Source: Patescibacteria group bacterium (GTDB lineage Bacteria > Patescibacteriota > Patescibacteriia > Magasanikbacterales > GWA2-37-8). Taken from it: a stretch of DNA of 26,422 nt. The notes below the pieces were generated by a model. That model did no database searches and was not told the DNA's origin. It was given only the letters and a program-made list of their open reading frames with translations. Both the position numbers and the translations under genes were made by a program. Below, one piece after another: positions 9,631 to 25,685 of the stretch (positions are counted from its first letter, which is position 1; the number at the start of each line of letters is the position of its first letter). The DNA is taken from the NCBI GenBank assembly GCA_004321885.1, contig SCQK01000016.1, positions 1 to 26,422 on the forward strand, in the 5' to 3' direction.

Positions 9631-9659
9631 ATGATACCTTATATTATAATATTTGTCAA
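9631..9659 (-). promoter_or_regulatory. candidate rpoB promoter with about 190-nt leader
   Basis: minus strand TTGACA - 17 nt - TATCAT; leader (9435-9625) contains several hairpins including TTGGCT-N6-AGCCAA motifs. Confidence 0.35.
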
Positions 9660-11563: not shown

Positions 11564-11607
11564 GCCTCAATTAGACCACAAAATCGCCCTTTTGTCAAGC
11601 CCTGTCC

Positions 11608-11636
11608 TTGACAAATTATTGTGTATAGTGTATAAT
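11608..11636 (+). promoter_or_regulatory. consensus sigma70 promoter of the wHTH-GHKL gene
   Basis: TTGACA(11608-13) - 17 nt - TATAAT(11631-36); ATG at 11657 gives a very short leader without SD. Confidence 0.7.
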
Positions 11637-11656: not shown

Positions 11657-12424
11657 ATGAAAACGGCTACACAAAGCCAAATTCTAAATTACATACGCTC
11701 AAAAAAAGGTGCGGGGGCGCGTGAGATAATAAAACAAACCGGCAAGTACCCCACCGGTATTTTTCGCCATCTCAAAAATTTGCTGGCGGCAAACAAAATT
11801 TATAAGATTGGCAATATGCCCAGAGCGAGGTATTATGCCTTTGTTGAAAATACTAATATGACAAGCGAAAATCTTGCCAAGGCCATAAATTGGGCCGCGA
11901 CAGGTGATAGTAATTTAGTTACGCCCGATATTTTGTGCCAAACCCGCGATGTTTTCCAGGCGCGCGCGGATCATCTCGCCAAAGATTTAAAGCGAATAAT
12001 CAAAGACGATGACCTGATTTATCTTTTGATAGCCGCCGCTGATGAAATTGGAAACAATTCTTTTGATCATAATATTGGCCGCTGGCAGGATGTCCCCGGC
12101 GTGTTTTTTCAAATGAAAGAAGGTGAACGCGAAATGATTTTTGCCGACCGCGGACAAGGCGTGTTGGCCACCATCAGCGGAGTCAGACCTGATATTAAAG
12201 GTTCTGCCGACGCTTTGCGGGTAGCATTCACCGAGATTATTTCCGGCCGCGCGCCCGAGAAAAGAGGCAACGGACTTAAACTTGTGAAAAAAATAATCGT
12301 GGAAAATAATTTGTATCTAGAATTTTATAGCGGCAACGCCAAGGCAGTAATAGAAACGCCGGATTTAAGGATAGAAAAATCTGAAATAAACATAACAGGA
12401 ACTGTCGTGTATCTTAAATTTTAA
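11657..12424 (+). CDS. winged-helix DNA-binding domain fused to GHKL (HATPase_c) ATPase, RsbW/SpoIIAB-like
   Basis: N-terminal wHTH-like segment (QILNYIRSKKGAGAREIIKQTG...IFRHLKNLLAANKIYKIG); C-terminal N-box AADEIGNNSFDHN, G1 box ADRGQG, G2 box GNGLKLV. Confidence 0.75.
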   Translation: MKTATQSQILNYIRSKKGAGAREIIKQTGKYPTGIFRHLKNLLAANKIYKIGNMPRARYYAFVENTNMTSENLAKAINWAATGDSNLVTPDILCQTRDVFQARADHLAKDLKRIIKDDDLIYLLIAAADEIGNNSFDHNIGRWQDVPGVFFQMKEGEREMIFADRGQGVLATISGVRPDIKGSADALRVAFTEIISGRAPEKRGNGLKLVKKIIVENNLYLEFYSGNAKAVIETPDLRIEKSEINITGTVVYLKF

Positions 12425-19803: not shown

Positions 19804-19832
19804 ATTATACCACAAAAAACCGGTTTTGTCAA
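19804..19832 (-). promoter_or_regulatory. perfect consensus sigma70 promoter embedded in the 3' end of the DUF167 gene
   Basis: minus strand TTGACA - 17 nt - TATAAT; the DUF167 stop TGA overlaps the -35. Confidence 0.65.
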
Positions 19833-21287: not shown

Positions 21288-21826
21288 TTAAACTGCCCGC
21301 GCCTTAACATGTAAGCAAAACGGATAATATTGTACGCAATAAACTCATTTTCAATCGTACCGTCCGTCGCCATCTTCACCGCTTTGGGCAACGACACGAA
21401 CTCTACTTTTATCGGAAATTCCTCGTCGCCCGCCAGCGGCGCCGGCCGCAAATCCTTGGCCGCGAAAATATCTATGTGCCAAAGCAGGCTATTGCTGGGC
21501 GATTTTCTATAAAGCCGCTTGAAAGTCCCGGCCTTGTAGCCGGCCTCCTCGCGCAATTCCCTTTGTGCCGCGGCTGTCGGACTCTCGCCTTTATCCACCC
21601 GTCCGGCCGGCAAAAACCAGGTATTTTTCCTAAACCCGTGGCGGTATTCGTTTATCAAAAGCAAACGCCCGCGCCGGTCAAAAGCCAAAATTGTCACCGA
21701 GTTGGGCCGGCGGCAATATTCAAAAATTTTCTTCTCGCCATTTGGAAATAACACATCTCTCTGGTGCACGTCAAAAATTACGCCCTGGTAAACCTGTCTC
21801 AATTTTCCGTACCTAACTTTTTTCAT
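21281..21826 (-). CDS. NUDIX hydrolase (ADP-ribose pyrophosphatase-like)
   Basis: Nudix box GRVDKGESPTAAAQRELREEAGY; SD GGAGGAG; ATG overlaps the upstream gene stop (ATGA). Confidence 0.88.
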   Translation of the reverse strand: MKKVRYGKLRQVYQGVIFDVHQRDVLFPNGEKKIFEYCRRPNSVTILAFDRRGRLLLINEYRHGFRKNTWFLPAGRVDKGESPTAAAQRELREEAGYKAGTFKRLYRKSPSNSLLWHIDIFAAKDLRPAPLAGDEEFPIKVEFVSLPKAVKMATDGTIENEFIAYNIIRFAYMLRRGQFKW

Positions 21827-22407
21827 ATTTTCTCCTCCCCTGAAAATTCATGCCTAAAAATGTGAATGATAAAACTGGTGCCCAAGAGCGACAACAGCCC
21901 GACAATCACGAACAGCAAGCGGAAGGAATAAAAGTCCGCCAAATAAGCGCCCAAAAAAGCGGCTGTAGCCGTGCCCAGACTGACCGTGGTGTTATAAATG
22001 CCCCACTCATAGCCCGCCTTTTCGTCGCGCAAATAGCGGGTGAAAATCACCACCCAGCCAGGAAACGCCAGGGCGCCGCCCAGGCCGTAAATAAATTGCA
22101 GGATATAGACATGATTTAATGTTTGCGCGAAAACAAATCCAAACGGCACCGCGCTCATCAGAATTGAACCAACAAACAAAGTAATCAGCTCTCTTTTGTT
22201 GCCGCGCTCTTCGTCTGTCCACTTGGCCACCAGCATTTGAAAAAGCGATTTGGTAAGAAGTTGAATCGTCGTGGCCACGCCAATGGCTATTAGCGAAGCG
22301 CCGGAGATATTTTTCAGCATGAAAACCGCGAATATCGGCTGAATCAAACCAAAACTGCCCAAAATAAATAAATCAGACAAAATTAACGCGCGAATGATTT
22401 TGTGCAT
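21823..22407 (-). CDS. MFS-type transporter, 6-TM N-terminal half only
   Basis: 195 aa from ATG at 22407; MFS motif A-like LVAKWTDEERGNKRELITL between TM2 and TM3; six predicted TM then stop; the 375-aa ORF-track version extends through the GC-rich segment without support. Confidence 0.55.
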   Translation of the reverse strand: MHKIIRALILSDLFILGSFGLIQPIFAVFMLKNISGASLIAIGVATTIQLLTKSLFQMLVAKWTDEERGNKRELITLFVGSILMSAVPFGFVFAQTLNHVYILQFIYGLGGALAFPGWVVIFTRYLRDEKAGYEWGIYNTTVSLGTATAAFLGAYLADFYSFRLLFVIVGLLSLLGTSFIIHIFRHEFSGEEKI

Positions 22408-22452
22408 AAGTGGGGTATTTTCGCCACTATAAAATACCACTTTAACGCAATC

Positions 22453-22481
22453 TTGACAATTATATTTTCTCGGACTATAAT
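22453..22481 (+). promoter_or_regulatory. perfect consensus sigma70 promoter
   Basis: TTGACA - 17 nt - TATAAT, then about 45-nt leader with SD ggagagagaag before ATG at 22531. Confidence 0.65.
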
Positions 22482-22530
22482 TTCGCCCAACTGTCCAGCG
22501 GTCCAACCTTTTCCCGGAGAGAGAAGACTG

Positions 22531-22752
22531 ATGACCAGGCACATCTGTTGTAGGGACGGCGATTGTGGTTGTCCGGCGAGCTGCCGCGGCATGCTCAAAC
22601 GGCGGGGCAAGAAGCCCCGAGCCAACAAGCACGACAAGCGCGACGAGCAGCGCGACAACGTCGGCCTCTCCCGCAAGCGGAGAATGCCGCCGCCCATCAC
22701 CAACGAGCGCACCGACTACGTGGACGGCGACGACGGCGTCATCTTCCCGTAG
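22531..22752 (+). CDS. small Cys-rich, highly basic protein (73 aa)
   Basis: MTRHICCRDGDCGCPASCRGMLKRRGKKPRANKHDKRDEQRDNV...; good SD; about 63% GC segment; consensus promoter upstream, terminator downstream. Confidence 0.4.
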   Translation: MTRHICCRDGDCGCPASCRGMLKRRGKKPRANKHDKRDEQRDNVGLSRKRRMPPPITNERTDYVDGDDGVIFP

Positions 22753-22768
22753 AGTGGGAGACGACGTC

Positions 22769-22954
22769 ATGAAAAAAAACAAACACCCAAAAAAAGGTTT
22801 GCCCGCGAAAGTTCGCCTCGGCGAACCATTCCAGGGCATGCCTCCTTGTTCGGGGAAAAAGCCGACACTCGTCGGTTTCGCTAACCCCGACATCTTCGCG
22901 CACCTTAACATGCTCGGTGTCTTTGGCTCCGGGGTCAAACCCGTGGCCAACTAG
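22769..22954 (+). CDS. small hypothetical protein (61 aa)
   Basis: MKKNKHPKKGLPAKVRLGEPFQGMPPCSGKKPTLVGFANPDIFAHLNMLGVFGSGVKPVAN; SD gggaga 7 nt upstream; 16 nt after the previous ORF. Confidence 0.35.
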   Translation: MKKNKHPKKGLPAKVRLGEPFQGMPPCSGKKPTLVGFANPDIFAHLNMLGVFGSGVKPVAN

Positions 22955-23020
22955 ACCCGCCCCAGAAGGGCCGTGACCCGCGGCCCGAACGCGCTCTATG
23001 CCGGAGCGCGCGTCTCCTCC

Positions 23021-23067
23021 CTCCTGCTCCGCTTTCATCCCTTTTCTCGGAGCAGGAGGGTTTTTTT
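23021..23067 (+). terminator. intrinsic terminator
   Basis: ctcctgctccg - 16-nt loop - cggagcaggag then gggttttttta. Confidence 0.65.
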
Positions 23068-25615
23068 ATCCTTTTTTTCTAAAAATCCACACTGCCAAAG
23101 CGCCGATTTTTTTTAACCCGCCTTTCAGCGCCGCTCCCCGCGCCTTGGCCAAAAACCCCAACAGCAGTGTCGTCACCCCGCCGGCCGTGGCTGTCAGATA
23201 TTTTTCAGTCGTGTCCTTTTCTTTGTTTTGCCCCGCGCTTATCTGCTCCTGCTTTTTCAACAAATCCGGCGACGGTCCGAACGAAACAACATCTTCGTCG
23301 GAGCGCGGCCACACCTGGAGCCCGTTTTTGCCCTGTTCCAAAACGCCGACCACCTCCACATTCTCCCCTTCCTTAAATTTTTTCTTGTCTATTTTGGCGT
23401 ACTTTTTGAAATAAATAACCGTTTCCTCGGCCCCGTCATCCAGATACATTAAATTGCTTTTGATTTCCGTAATTTCGCCGGCCACCTTCACCAGCGCTCC
23501 GCCCGCCTCATCGTCAATTTCGTCTGGCGCCACGGCCGCGGGTTTTAACTGGCGCTCGGTGGCCAAAATATCAATATCCTTTTTTGTTTTTATTTTCACC
23601 CGCTTGACCCCGCCCGCTTCAGACCGCTCGCCGCGCACTTCAATATAATCACCGGGTTTCAAATCCGGAAAATCTTTTTTGTAGGAATAAATTTGCATGC
23701 CCAAAGCAACTTTTGGGTCGGAAATATAAAAAAACTGCACCCCGAAATTGCCGGCCACGGCGCTGACAATGCCGCGAATCTTGACGCGCGTTCCCTTGGC
23801 CGCCTGCCGCGCCTGTTCAATAGTCATGGCCACAAGCGGCTTGTAATTTTTAGAAGCGGTTTTTTTCTTGGCCGTTTTTTTAGCCGCTTTCGCTTCTCTC
23901 CCCTTTATAAGGGGAGAGTTAGAGAGGGGTATTTGCGACAAAGAAGCTACCGCCACCCGCCCCGGGCTCGGCGTTTGCCACTTCCACTCGCCCCCCACCA
24001 GCGCATAGCTTTTACTGTCTTCGCTTTTCCCGAATTTCACCAAATCAACCACCTGGCTGTCGGGCGACAGCAGTTCAACTTTATCGCCGGTATTTTCCAA
24101 ATTGATTTTCGTGGCCAGCCGGTAAAAAACCAAAAATCCGCCTCCATTGATAAAAGTTTTATCCGGTAAAATAAATTTTTTACCACTGACGTCGCGCAAA
24201 ATCCAGCCCGACAAATTCGCCGTGCTGGAAGCGCTGTTGTAAAGCTCTATGTACTCGCTTGTGTCCAAACCCAGCGGGTCGGAAAAAATTTCGCTGATGA
24301 CAACAGCCGAATTTCTGATGGATAACCCCGGGCCGATGGCAATGGAAATTTTTTTGCTCCCGGCCGTGCCGCTCGTGCTGGTGGCGCTGACGATCACAGA
24401 AAATTTTCCCGACGTAGCGAACGCGCGCGAGACCTCTTCGCCCAAAGCAAAAACGCCGTCGCCAAAATTCCAGGCGAAACTTAAAACCCCGCCGCGCGGG
24501 TCAGCCGAATCAGCCGCGTCAAAGTTTATCATCTCGCCCAATTCCGCGCTGGCCACGGCATTGATTTTCCAAACGATTTCCGTGTCATCGGTTTCGGTAA
24601 TAACATTTTCCGCGCCCGGCGTGGGCTCGTCGCTCCATTGCCATTTTCCGCCGGCAACGCGCGAATAGCTTTGCCCCTCGGGCGCTTTATCATACTTTAT
24701 CATGTCAACTACACTCTCTCCATAACTCAACTTCACTTCTTCTTTGGTGGAATTATTCAGTGCAATGCCGGTCGTTGTTCTTTTCCAAATAACAATCTGC
24801 CCGGGCCCGATACTGCCGCTCAAAGAAAAGCTCTTCACCAAATCAGATAATTTCCAACCAACCAAATCAACCGCGGCCGTTGAAGTATTTTTGATTTCAA
24901 TAAACTCTTCTTCAATATCCGAACCCGGCGGATTGGGGTAAATTTCGTTCAGGATAAGGGCTCCCTCCCCTTGATAAGGGGAAGGTTGGGATGGGGTAGT
25001 AAGGGGTGGGGTAACTGGTGAAGTTCCCTCCCCTTGATACTTGCCCGCCTCTGGCGGGAGGGAGGACGAGGGAGGGGTAGTCGTGGCCGGCGCTCCGACG
25101 CTGTTCACCGCTCCCACCGTATTCCCATTCGTATGCTCGCGCCAATTCGCGCTGGTATAATCGGCCAAAAACGGGTCAATCCTTTGCAAAGAAAAATTTG
25201 GCGCGTTAATATAGGTAAATTTTTCCACAAAATTTCCGCTCACGTCTTTGAGCCCTATCTCCTCGCCGCTTTCATTCAAACTGCTCCACGATGAATCAAA
25301 TACCGAACCGGCAAACGAGGGATAATCAAGCATAAAAGTGGTGCTGACTTGCGCGATGACAACGTATTCGCCGGGCGAAACTATCGGGTCGCTCGCCTTA
25401 AGACCGTGGTTGGTGTTATCTTCCCAAAATTTCCATTCGCTCAAATCAACCGGTTCATTACCTTTATTCCAAATTTCAATCCACTCGTGTGTGCTGGCGG
25501 CATAAGCGCCGACTTCGTTTATTACAATATCCGTATTCGCCGCCCGAACCGCGGTAAAAACAAAAAAACTGCCCGCGGCGAGGAGTGATAAGAAGAAAAA
25601 TAGCTTGCGCCGCAT
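23066..25615 (-). CDS. lamin-tail-domain (LTD x3) surface protein with C-terminal OB-fold-like domain and TM anchor
   Basis: signal peptide MRRKLFFFLSLLAAGSFFVFTAVRA; LTD signatures IVINEVGAYAASTHEWIEIWNKGNEPVDLSEWKF, ALILNEIYPNPPGSDIEEEFIEIKNTSTAAVDLVGWKL, AVVISEIFSDPLGLDTSEYIELYNSASSTANLSGWIL; OB-like GTRVKIRGIVSAVAGNFGVQFFYISD; C-terminal hydrophobic anchor; three repeat copies in-frame. Confidence 0.8.
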   Translation of the reverse strand: MRRKLFFFLSLLAAGSFFVFTAVRAANTDIVINEVGAYAASTHEWIEIWNKGNEPVDLSEWKFWEDNTNHGLKASDPIVSPGEYVVIAQVSTTFMLDYPSFAGSVFDSSWSSLNESGEEIGLKDVSGNFVEKFTYINAPNFSLQRIDPFLADYTSANWREHTNGNTVGAVNSVGAPATTTPPSSSLPPEAGKYQGEGTSPVTPPLTTPSQPSPYQGEGALILNEIYPNPPGSDIEEEFIEIKNTSTAAVDLVGWKLSDLVKSFSLSGSIGPGQIVIWKRTTTGIALNNSTKEEVKLSYGESVVDMIKYDKAPEGQSYSRVAGGKWQWSDEPTPGAENVITETDDTEIVWKINAVASAELGEMINFDAADSADPRGGVLSFAWNFGDGVFALGEEVSRAFATSGKFSVIVSATSTSGTAGSKKISIAIGPGLSIRNSAVVISEIFSDPLGLDTSEYIELYNSASSTANLSGWILRDVSGKKFILPDKTFINGGGFLVFYRLATKINLENTGDKVELLSPDSQVVDLVKFGKSEDSKSYALVGGEWKWQTPSPGRVAVASLSQIPLSNSPLIKGREAKAAKKTAKKKTASKNYKPLVAMTIEQARQAAKGTRVKIRGIVSAVAGNFGVQFFYISDPKVALGMQIYSYKKDFPDLKPGDYIEVRGERSEAGGVKRVKIKTKKDIDILATERQLKPAAVAPDEIDDEAGGALVKVAGEITEIKSNLMYLDDGAEETVIYFKKYAKIDKKKFKEGENVEVVGVLEQGKNGLQVWPRSDEDVVSFGPSPDLLKKQEQISAGQNKEKDTTEKYLTATAGGVTTLLLGFLAKARGAALKGGLKKIGALAVWIFRKKG
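23895..23932 (+). repeat. copy E of 38-bp repeat (tctccc/gggaga variant) inside LTD gene
   Basis: ttctctcccc-tttataa-ggggagag-ttag-agaggggtat. Confidence 0.75.
24961..25013 (+). repeat. copy F of repeat with extra GGGGT(G)GGGGTA tail, inside LTD gene
   Basis: ctccctcccc-ttgataa-ggggaagg-ttgg-gatggggtag-taaggggtggggtaa. Confidence 0.75.
25024..25080 (+). repeat. copy G of repeat with 17-nt insertion in the loop, inside LTD gene
   Basis: ttccctcccc-ttgatac[ttgcccgcctctggcgg]gagggagg-acg-agggaggggtag. Confidence 0.7.
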
Positions 25616-25634: not shown

Positions 25635-25685
25635 ATTATATTACCCCTTGCTATTCTTGACAACACCGTTATTCTCATATTAAAT
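25635..25685. promoter_or_regulatory. divergent promoter pair sharing a TTGTCAAGAA/TTCTTGACAA -35 region
   Basis: plus: TTGACA(25657-62) - 17 nt - TTAAAT; minus: TTGTCA - 17 nt - TATAAT (25635-40) driving the LTD gene. Confidence 0.5.

Follow-up and report, generated by a model that had tools for sequence, protein, structure and literature searches.

The 26,422-nucleotide (nt) window analysed here is a complete contig (locus tags EPN28_) of a Patescibacteria (candidate phyla radiation, CPR) metagenome-assembled genome (MAG), and at positions 22,453–23,067 of its forward strand it contains a short transcription unit with two small open reading frames (ORFs), ORF1 and ORF2. We read this unit, with a probability of about 0.6, as a single-gene, lineage-restricted and chromosomally inherited element, in which ORF1 would encode a small protein and be followed by a long structured 3′ untranslated region (UTR). 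This reading is carried by a diverged, syntenic homologue of ORF1, by a substitution pattern that points to selection on the ORF1 protein, and by a 3′ region that is conserved as nucleotide sequence and hairpins, not as a second reading frame. An earlier assessment of the same DNA (the original prediction) had instead proposed a recently acquired, two-protein unit.

ORF1 and its diverged relative

The perfect consensus promoter, the two ORFs 16 nt apart and the clean terminator described in the original prediction are all present. The unit opens with a sigma-70 promoter (22,453–22,481, + strand) matching the consensus at 12 of 12 positions (TTGACA 22,453–22,458, a 17-nt spacer, and TATAAT 22,476–22,481), from which transcription is predicted to start near 22,488. 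The resulting 42-nt leader (22,488–22,530, +) contains the conserved block GTCCAACCTyTTyCC (22,501–22,515), followed by the purine-rich Shine–Dalgarno (SD) sequence GGAG (22,516–22,519). ORF1 itself (22,531–22,752, +; ATG 22,531, stop TAG 22,750–22,752) encodes a basic protein of 73 amino acids (aa), predicted to be disordered. The SD had been called strong, and while the GGAG is indeed there, it lies 11 nt ahead of the ATG, a spacing rather long for that description. At the distal end, an intrinsic terminator (23,019–23,067, +) is formed by a perfect 13-bp stem (23,019–23,031/23,048–23,060), a 16-nt loop and a run of seven T, or U in the RNA, at 23,061–23,067, with a C/U-rich CCCUCC stretch ahead of it. 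This terminator is one-directional, its minus strand having no U-tract, and has a folding z-score (z) of −5.9.

The promoter is more than a chance match: allowing one mismatch at most, TTGACA-17-TATAAT is found six times in the window, where 0.02 occurrences would be expected. Three of these are exact, and five or more of them sit in intergenic DNA immediately upstream of a gene start. This is the usual promoter type of the organism, and nothing peculiar to the unit. The five other consensus or near-consensus promoters include those at 9,631–9,659, 11,570–11,636, 19,804–19,832 and 25,635–25,663. At the genes starting at 11,657, 13,033 and 25,615, the −10 box is only ~7–20 nt from the ATG and no SD is present, which suggests leaderless or very-short-leader mRNAs; other genes of the contig use GGAGG SDs.

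A word-indexed homology search of 5.8 billion proteins matched ORF1 to itself only, and exact-sequence look-ups of ORF1, ORF2 and the nearby NUDIX protein found none on record. An exhaustive phmmer (HMMER) scan of 1.84 billion cluster representatives, with a concatenate of ORF1 and ORF2 as the query, returned one credible relative of ORF1, the 65-aa protein P0125 (E 3.6e-5), which is 47% identical to ORF1 over 62 aa (BLASTP), and is the sole non-self, non-repeat match in that set. Four further matches (P0123, P0124, P0126 and P0127) were dropped as multi-repeat proteins, their matches falling in low-complexity stretches or across the ORF1/ORF2 junction that the concatenation had created. A literature search found no paper on the ORF1/P0125 family.

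P0125 is encoded on L009, a 2.66-kb contig of related Patescibacteria, which also has a gene for an EamA-flavokinase fusion of the kind typical of such lineages. The gene convergent to that of P0125 encodes a protein with lamin-tail (LTD) and OB-fold domains, 60% identical over 303 aa to the LTD/OB protein that lies beside the unit in the window. The L009 module runs from a promoter (TTGACG-17-TACAAT) with a spacer block, ATATTTT, common to both genomes, through the same leader block, a GGAGA-type SD, and an ORF with an ATG ACN start and a stop at the equivalent position, to the conserved hairpins of the 3′ part and, at the same place, an intrinsic terminator of unrelated sequence. The aligned leader block, GTCCAACCTYTTYCC, is identical in the two genomes save for two pyrimidine transitions. 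Because the module is conserved from the −35 box to the terminator in a diverged relative, the unit appears to be a self-contained transcription unit, as had been proposed.

On comparison with P0125, ORF1 is almost certainly a genuine gene, with purifying selection acting on its protein product. The same residue is specified at 32 of 64 aligned codons, 14 of these 32 using different synonymous codons, and the DYVDGD motif alone contains four third-position differences. The nonsynonymous (dN) and synonymous (dS) divergences are 0.44 and 1.13, giving a dN/dS of ~0.39, in keeping with the genuine basic small-protein gene of the original prediction; for the LTD/OB gene the corresponding values are 0.32 and 1.77. 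Every indel in the nucleotide alignment with L009 is a multiple of three, and the BLOSUM62 sum of the sense frame is 164, compared with at most 113 in any of the five other frames. With a codon model derived from 13 of the contig's genes, ORF1 has a log-likelihood ratio (LLR) of 0.138, above all 1,015 out-of-frame control fragments. This protein-level selection, together with conservation of the SD and ATG, would speak for translation of ORF1. Antisense frames had also been weighed, because several frames run open through the GC-rich stretch and one of those in antisense shares the wobble position. Those on the minus strand (109, 375 and 99 aa) were rejected, having lower BLOSUM sums, no promoter, SD or conserved ends, and an L/R/S-rich “shadow” composition.

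GenBank annotates the gene as EPN28_04850, a 116-aa protein beginning at GTG 22,402, upstream of the promoter and overlapping the start of the neighbouring MFS gene. The P0125 homologue and the shared “MT” start indicate that this call is over-extended, and that ATG 22,531 is the true start. For annotation, this would validate an orphan CPR/Patescibacteria small protein as a selected gene, with its length corrected from 116 to 73 aa.

ORF2 and the structured 3′ region

ORF2 (22,769–22,954, +; ATG 22,769, stop TAG 22,952–22,954; GenBank EPN28_04855) is a 61-aa frame whose start, 16 nt past the ORF1 stop, is preceded at 8 nt by a GGGAG SD (22,756–22,760). The SD, the ATG, an A-rich stretch and two GC-rich hairpins all lie within a window-specific segment of 127 nt (22,753–22,879, +; z −3.5), of which no second copy was found in the window or in the comparison loci. 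This segment is absent from L009, where the conserved sequence resumes directly after the ORF1 stop codon. L009 has neither the start codon, the SD nor the first ~40 codons of ORF2, and shortly before the conserved block the frame is disrupted by a 7-nt indel; the best counterpart there is a 17-codon GTG ORF with no SD. What ORF2 shares with L009 is its last ~20 codons and the 3′ UTR, as nucleotide sequence and hairpins. Of the ORF pair, which the original prediction had suggested seeking in neighbouring genomes, a homologue of ORF1 was recovered in L009, but no counterpart of ORF2, for which searches of the same 5.8 billion and 1.84 billion proteins returned a self-match only.

In the conserved tail of ORF2, dS falls to 0.59, compared with 1.13 in ORF1 and 1.77 in the LTD/OB gene, and dN/dS is ~0.7, values that carry the signature of constraint at the nucleotide level and not the protein level. 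The codon LLR of ORF2 is ambiguous (−0.041), lying in the top 1.4% of out-of-frame controls, yet below 99.5% of true in-frame fragments, and its RNA folds with a z of −3.8. On these comparisons, ORF2 appears not to be conserved as a reading frame, and probably represents no conserved protein. The original prediction, which proposed this 61-aa second protein, had held that conservation of the nucleotide sequence without the reading frame would tell against it, and this is the pattern found in L009. The annotated “hypothetical protein” is more likely to mark a conserved structured RNA region.

The conserved 3′ stretch spans ~100 nt, and consists of CUUCGyGCAyCU, CUCGGUGUCUUyGG, hairpin A, CCAACUAGA, and hairpin B with the invariant 15-mer UCUAUGCCGGAGCGC. 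Hairpin A (22,919–22,956, +) has the base GUCU/AGAC and a core stem at 22,925–22,930/22,943–22,948, and is flanked by the invariant CUCGGUGUCUU and CCAACUAGA. It has 11 of 12 cells paired, with one compensatory change (C-G to U-A) and one wobble change, and a z of −3.7 in the window and −5.5 in L009; its loop is not conserved. Hairpin B (22,990–23,010, +) consists of an 8-bp stem around the invariant loop region UCUAUGCCGGAG, with all 16 cells paired, one C-G to A-U compensatory change, one wobble change, and a 15-nt block identical in both genomes. Taken together, 27 of 28 cells are paired, with two compensatory and two wobble changes. A middle hairpin (22,968–22,986, +; GGGCCG/CGGCCC) is the weakest element, its L009 equivalent having 4 bp and the alignment being out of register.

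The leader and ORF1 have z values of −0.5 (window) and −1.5 (L009), compared with −3.6 and −4.9 for the conserved 3′ module without its terminator, and +0.7 to −1.0 for five control gene segments of the window. The value for the whole unit (−5.2) is explained by those of the 3′ module and the insert. G-U pairs and weaker minus-strand z-scores favour the + strand, which would assign the structure to the ORF1 transcript, and not to the 3′ UTR of the convergent gene. The RNA-structure claim for hairpins A and B is thereby supported, short of proof. The possibility, raised in the original prediction, that the segment is instead a structured RNA applies to the 3′ half of the unit, the ORF1 half being coding, and no Rfam family was matched. 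At gathering thresholds, Rfam 15 identified three tRNAs only in the whole window, and at E ≤ 10 the unit and the L009 module gave only noise of a terminator-like kind, scoring no more than 18.7 bits where the cut-off is 50. In 124 kb of Patescibacteria loci, a covariance model built on the 3′ module matched only its two training sequences. The 15-mer TCTATGCCGGAGCGC had 57 matches in viral contigs, none with flanking similarity, and these were rejected as chance.

Several points weigh against the single-gene reading. With no more than two known family members, the case for homology comes from a single sequence and its synteny, and the covariation, drawn from two sequences, has no statistical power, being equalled in 141 of 500 shuffles. 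The others concern ORF2, and would fit a two-gene operon in which both frames give rise to proteins and ORF2 is a genuine 61-aa product, either lineage-specific or N-terminally extended, whose conserved part would be the hydrophobic C-terminal F(A/V)HLxxLGVFG. ORF2 has a good SD at 8-nt spacing, an ATG and an A-rich MKKNK start, a host-like GC profile by codon position (0.57/0.41/0.64), an LLR in the top 1.4% of out-of-frame controls, and an NCBI annotation. Over its last ~19 codons it can be aligned with L009, a 3-nt indel apart, down to a shared TAG stop, and the conservation of the 11 codons of F(A/V)HLxxLGVFG includes four third-position changes, making a translated C-terminal peptide conceivable. 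We nevertheless consider such an operon unlikely, given the missing start, SD and first ~40 codons and the frame-breaking indel in L009, the lack of homologues in either protein set, an LLR below that of nearly all true in-frame fragments, and a depressed dS with dN/dS of ~0.7 in a region of strongly structured RNA. Moreover, one “synonymous” change (GGC to GGT) makes up the 5′ side of a compensatory base-pair change, the 3′ side of which replaces Ala by Thr. If translated, ORF2 would probably be a young frame made by the insertion. A bypassing or frameshift event fusing ORF1 to the conserved ORF2 tail, suggested by a synonymous codon that comes next in the other frame in both genomes (chance probability roughly 0.1), was rejected, as the two genomes have different frame offsets and a slippery site is lacking.

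The strength of the 3′ structure invites a different emphasis, in which the transcript is primarily a dual-function regulatory RNA, its hairpin module base-pairing in trans, for example with SD regions, and ORF1 is a secondary passenger. The invariant single strands available for pairing would be CCAACUAGA, the loop AUGCC, and the C/U-rich CCCUCC before the terminator. The module is conserved in both nucleotides and structure, and is strongly structured in both genomes; the unit has a strong promoter and, as in small RNAs (sRNAs), ends in a strong terminator; and the anti-SD-like CCCUCC occurs in both genomes, just 5′ of or within the terminator stem. ORF1, however, is clearly under protein-level selection and so is no passenger, no Rfam family or further copy was found in the searches above, and the loop of hairpin A is not conserved, leaving this emphasis improbable.

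Two repeat patterns in the unit were also noted. The pentamer CCAAC occurs four times in the window unit (22,503, 22,622, 22,700 and 22,947) and ~5 times in that of L009, compared with a rough composition-based expectation of ~1; two positions are conserved, in the leader and just past hairpin A, and the repeats could be a protein-binding motif or chance. In addition, a 15-nt inverted repeat (22,498–22,512/22,792–22,806; 87% complementary) could bring the conserved leader block into pairing with the ORF2 start; its 3′ arm lies inside the window-specific insert, hence the pairing is not conserved.

Base composition, distribution and genomic setting

The unit was described as GC-rich at ~63% and, on that basis, as acquired. 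The excess is real, although the GC content is 59.2% over 22,453–23,067 and 62% over the core at 22,531–23,020, compared with 47.6% and 51.5% in the 1-kb flanks, and 4.4% of 615-nt windows of the contig are as GC-rich as the unit. The most GC-rich stretch of the contig lies elsewhere, at ~950–2,020 between yebC and rpoC (68.5% around 1,000–1,600), where long overlapping ORFs of 356 aa (+) and 226 aa (−) have no Pfam match and folding z is −2 to −3; this is probably the other “GC-rich” segment alluded to in the original prediction. In L009 the unit shows a comparable excess, 0.59–0.60 against 0.526. The GC content at third codon positions (GC3) of ORF1 is 0.88 in the window, compared with 0.57–0.68 in host genes, and 0.71 in L009, compared with ~0.6–0.66.

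A small mobile or phage-derived cassette, acquired recently, would account for a GC content ~10 points above the flanks and for the high GC3 of ORF1, as well as for a left neighbour that differs between the window and L009. In a synteny walk from the MFS gene through nine other Patescibacteria lineages (L001–L006 and L067–L073), the unit was never found beside that gene. Yet the same GC excess recurs beside the same LTD/OB gene in a relative at dS > 1, close to saturation of synonymous sites, so GC-richness is no mark of recent acquisition, and appears to be an inherited property of the unit, explained by Arg/Gly/Asp/Pro-rich coding with C/G-ending codons and by GC-rich hairpins. There are no terminal repeats or target duplications flanking the unit, save short matches regarded as chance, such as the imperfect 9-nt ATCTTCsCG, and no integrase, transposase or other mobility genes were found nearby. 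Neither in DNA nor in protein was similarity seen to phage and plasmid sequences (blastn and tblastn) or to IMG/VR viral contigs, scans of viral contigs with back-translated patterns found nothing, and the host-trained codon model accepts ORF1. Recent acquisition is, on this balance, very improbable. The pattern scans of metagenome and genome collections gave two matches in all, both rejected as pattern-selected chance, one from a metagenome (L007; antisense/intergenic between leuS and its neighbour in a proteobacterium) and one from a genome (L008; inside a pheA-like gene of a Synergistaceae MAG).

The unit sits among core-chromosome genes, the contig also carrying yebC, rpoC, rpoB, a methyltransferase gene, ftsK, recA, mgtC and three tRNAs, in addition to genes for a Wzy_C/O-antigen-ligase-like protein, a NUDIX protein, a “half” MFS protein with six transmembrane segments, and the 849-aa LTD/PKD/OB-fold protein. 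The one neighbour to which the unit stays linked in both genomes is the LTD/OB gene, at its 3′ end; two genomes are too few to call that linkage functional. From its known occurrences, the unit would be lineage-restricted, chromosomally inherited and very narrowly distributed (two known genomes).

To the left, the unit is divergent from the MFS-half/NUDIX operon, as originally described. A candidate promoter for this MFS-half/NUDIX/Wzy_C operon (22,431–22,459, −; TTGTCA-17-TATTTT) is a pattern match only, at 9 of 12 positions. Its −35 hexamer (TTGTCA, 22,459–22,454, −) is back to back with, and overlaps, that of the unit (TTGACA, 22,453–22,458, +), and RNA polymerase occupancy of the two promoters could be mutually exclusive. 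This arrangement is not kept in L009, whose left neighbour differs. The MFS protein (21,823–22,407, −) has 194 aa and six transmembrane segments, and is not truncated, but belongs to a conserved family of ~190–205 aa; at least 155 homologues were found in a protein search, the named matches being Patescibacteria. The gene is usually followed by NUDIX and Wzy_C/O-antigen-ligase-like genes, whereas its upstream neighbour is highly variable. In L067 and L068, from another Patescibacteria lineage, the region downstream of the EamA-flavokinase gene (L067, 2,083–3,166) is called, depending on the assembly, as a 152-aa gene on one strand or a 112-aa gene on the opposite strand; neither call has a Pfam match, and the region is unrelated to the unit.

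To the right, the LTD/PKD/OB protein (23,066–25,615, −) has three lamin-tail domains, a PKD domain and an OB-fold/DUF5689 region. Its L009 counterpart (1,722–2,651, −) shares a nearly invariant, anchor-like C-terminal tail (...TATAGGVTTLLLGFLAK). The end of the LTD/OB gene abuts the terminator of the unit and has no U-tract terminator of its own; because the terminator of the unit is one-directional, antisense read-through into the unit is possible.

Possible function and likeness to known systems

ORF1 and P0125 share the motifs CRGM(L/I)KRR, K.P.A.K, RDE, SR(K/R)R, PP and DYVDGD(D/N)G.I. Both are strongly basic, with isoelectric points (pI) of 9.6 and 10.5 and 18 Lys and Arg each, and both are hydrophilic, with a grand average of hydropathy (GRAVY) of about −1.3 to −1.4. 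The C-terminal block is net-negative in both proteins, and its motif, DYVDGDxGxI, is short, acidic and beta-hairpin-like. Structure prediction, as recommended in the original prediction, was run on ORF1 with AlphaFold2 and the two-sequence alignment with P0125; it gave a predicted local distance difference test (pLDDT) score of 56, with no secondary structure, and ORF1 is accordingly modelled as an intrinsically disordered small protein. Neither ORF matched a recognised family, as had been stated: Pfam, NCBIfam, PHROGs, PADLOC and PDB sequence searches gave no significant match for ORF1, and PHROGs and PADLOC none at E ≤ 1 for ORF1, P0125 or ORF2. A “CRGM” match to 6f0k_E (E 0.65) was rejected, ORF1 having no signal peptide or lipobox context.

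The N-terminal cluster of the window protein, HICCRDGDCGCPASC, with five Cys and one His inside 15 residues, was the ground for proposing a metal-binding module or a precursor of a ribosomally synthesised and post-translationally modified peptide (RiPP). In the alignment, C18 (in CRGM) is alone common to P0125, while H4, C6, C7, C12 and C14 are absent there, mostly falling within a 7-residue window-specific insertion. A metallothionein- or zinc-knuckle-like ligand pattern is thus not conserved among the homologues, and because only C18 is shared, the cluster is best seen as a lineage-specific decoration, not the functional core of the family. Nor is there a RiPP maturase, protease or transporter context at either locus, the neighbours being the MFS-half, NUDIX, Wzy_C and LTD/PKD/OB genes in the window, and the EamA-flavokinase and LTD/OB genes in L009. 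With Pfam, NCBIfam and PDB also silent, both the metal-binding and the RiPP role seem remote. ORF1 and ORF2 do not resemble the toxins of type I toxin-antitoxin systems either, which are small, hydrophobic peptides that span the membrane: their GRAVY values are −1.31 and −0.29, and ORF1 has no hydrophobic segment. Our best guess, from composition only, is that ORF1 binds nucleic acid (RNA, the ribosome or DNA) via its basic stretch.

In the single-gene reading, the strong, constitutive-type sigma-70 promoter would drive a predicted mRNA of ~580 nt, the 5′ part of which would encode the 65–73-aa, K/R-rich, disordered ORF1 protein, and the 3′ part of which would form a structured UTR with at least two conserved hairpins, ending at the intrinsic terminator. 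Access to the ORF1 SD could be modulated by the conserved pyrimidine-rich block that precedes it, and the protein itself may be a disordered polycation, adopting a fold upon contact with a polyanion (RNA, the ribosome or DNA). The 3′ hairpins might control mRNA stability or translation, or protect the 3′ end; alternatively, they could be recognised by a protein, perhaps ORF1, or be released as a 3′-UTR-derived sRNA. Pairing with the GGAGG-type SDs of this genome is conceivable for the CCCUCC stretch that both genomes have ahead of the terminator. ORF2 would be a fortuitous or very young frame, the 127-nt insertion having brought an SD and an ATG ahead of a frame open across GC-rich hairpins.

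A bolder version, which we regard as speculative and rather improbable, would make the unit an undescribed bifunctional RNA module, confined to one Patescibacteria lineage, in which a disordered basic mini-protein is combined with hairpins A and B and the CCCUCC stretch, acting as an autoregulatory binding site or a trans-acting sRNA, with ORF2 an instance of de novo ORF birth over a UTR. If the 3′ module did prove to be a regulatory RNA or an ORF1 binding site, it would join the very small number of regulatory RNA elements described from CPR bacteria. As it stands, the finding is a modest one: ORF1 and P0125 form a new family of an ordinary kind, and the regulatory role is a lead and not a discovery.

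Small-protein transcripts with dual functions or with functional 3′ UTRs include RNAIII/hld of Staphylococcus aureus, SgrS/SgrT of Escherichia coli and SR1/SR1P of Bacillus subtilis. The unit resembles these in being one short transcript with its own promoter and terminator, in which a small ORF is combined with a separately conserved structured RNA bearing hairpins and C-rich single strands. It differs in having no sequence or Rfam relationship to them, and in an ORF that lies at the 5′ side and is larger (65–73 aa). A trans-acting role for the RNA part, drawn from this analogy, would be pure inference.

On the protein side, the comparison is with small, basic, disordered proteins associated with nucleic acids or the ribosome, such as bS21, bS22/SRA, the basic tails of bL32-like proteins, and protamine-like nucleoid proteins. 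ORF1 is like these in its size (65–73 aa), pI of ~10, K/R-rich composition, lack of a predicted fold alone, and strong promoter; unlike them, it has no profile match to ribosomal or nucleoid families (Pfam, NCBIfam, PDB), bears the acidic DYVDGDxG motif at its C-terminus, and is found in two known genomes only. In being a lineage-restricted “hypothetical protein” with no family, ORF1 is also like the ordinary orphan genes of Patescibacteria/CPR MAGs, from which it differs in that its coding status is backed by a syntenic homologue.

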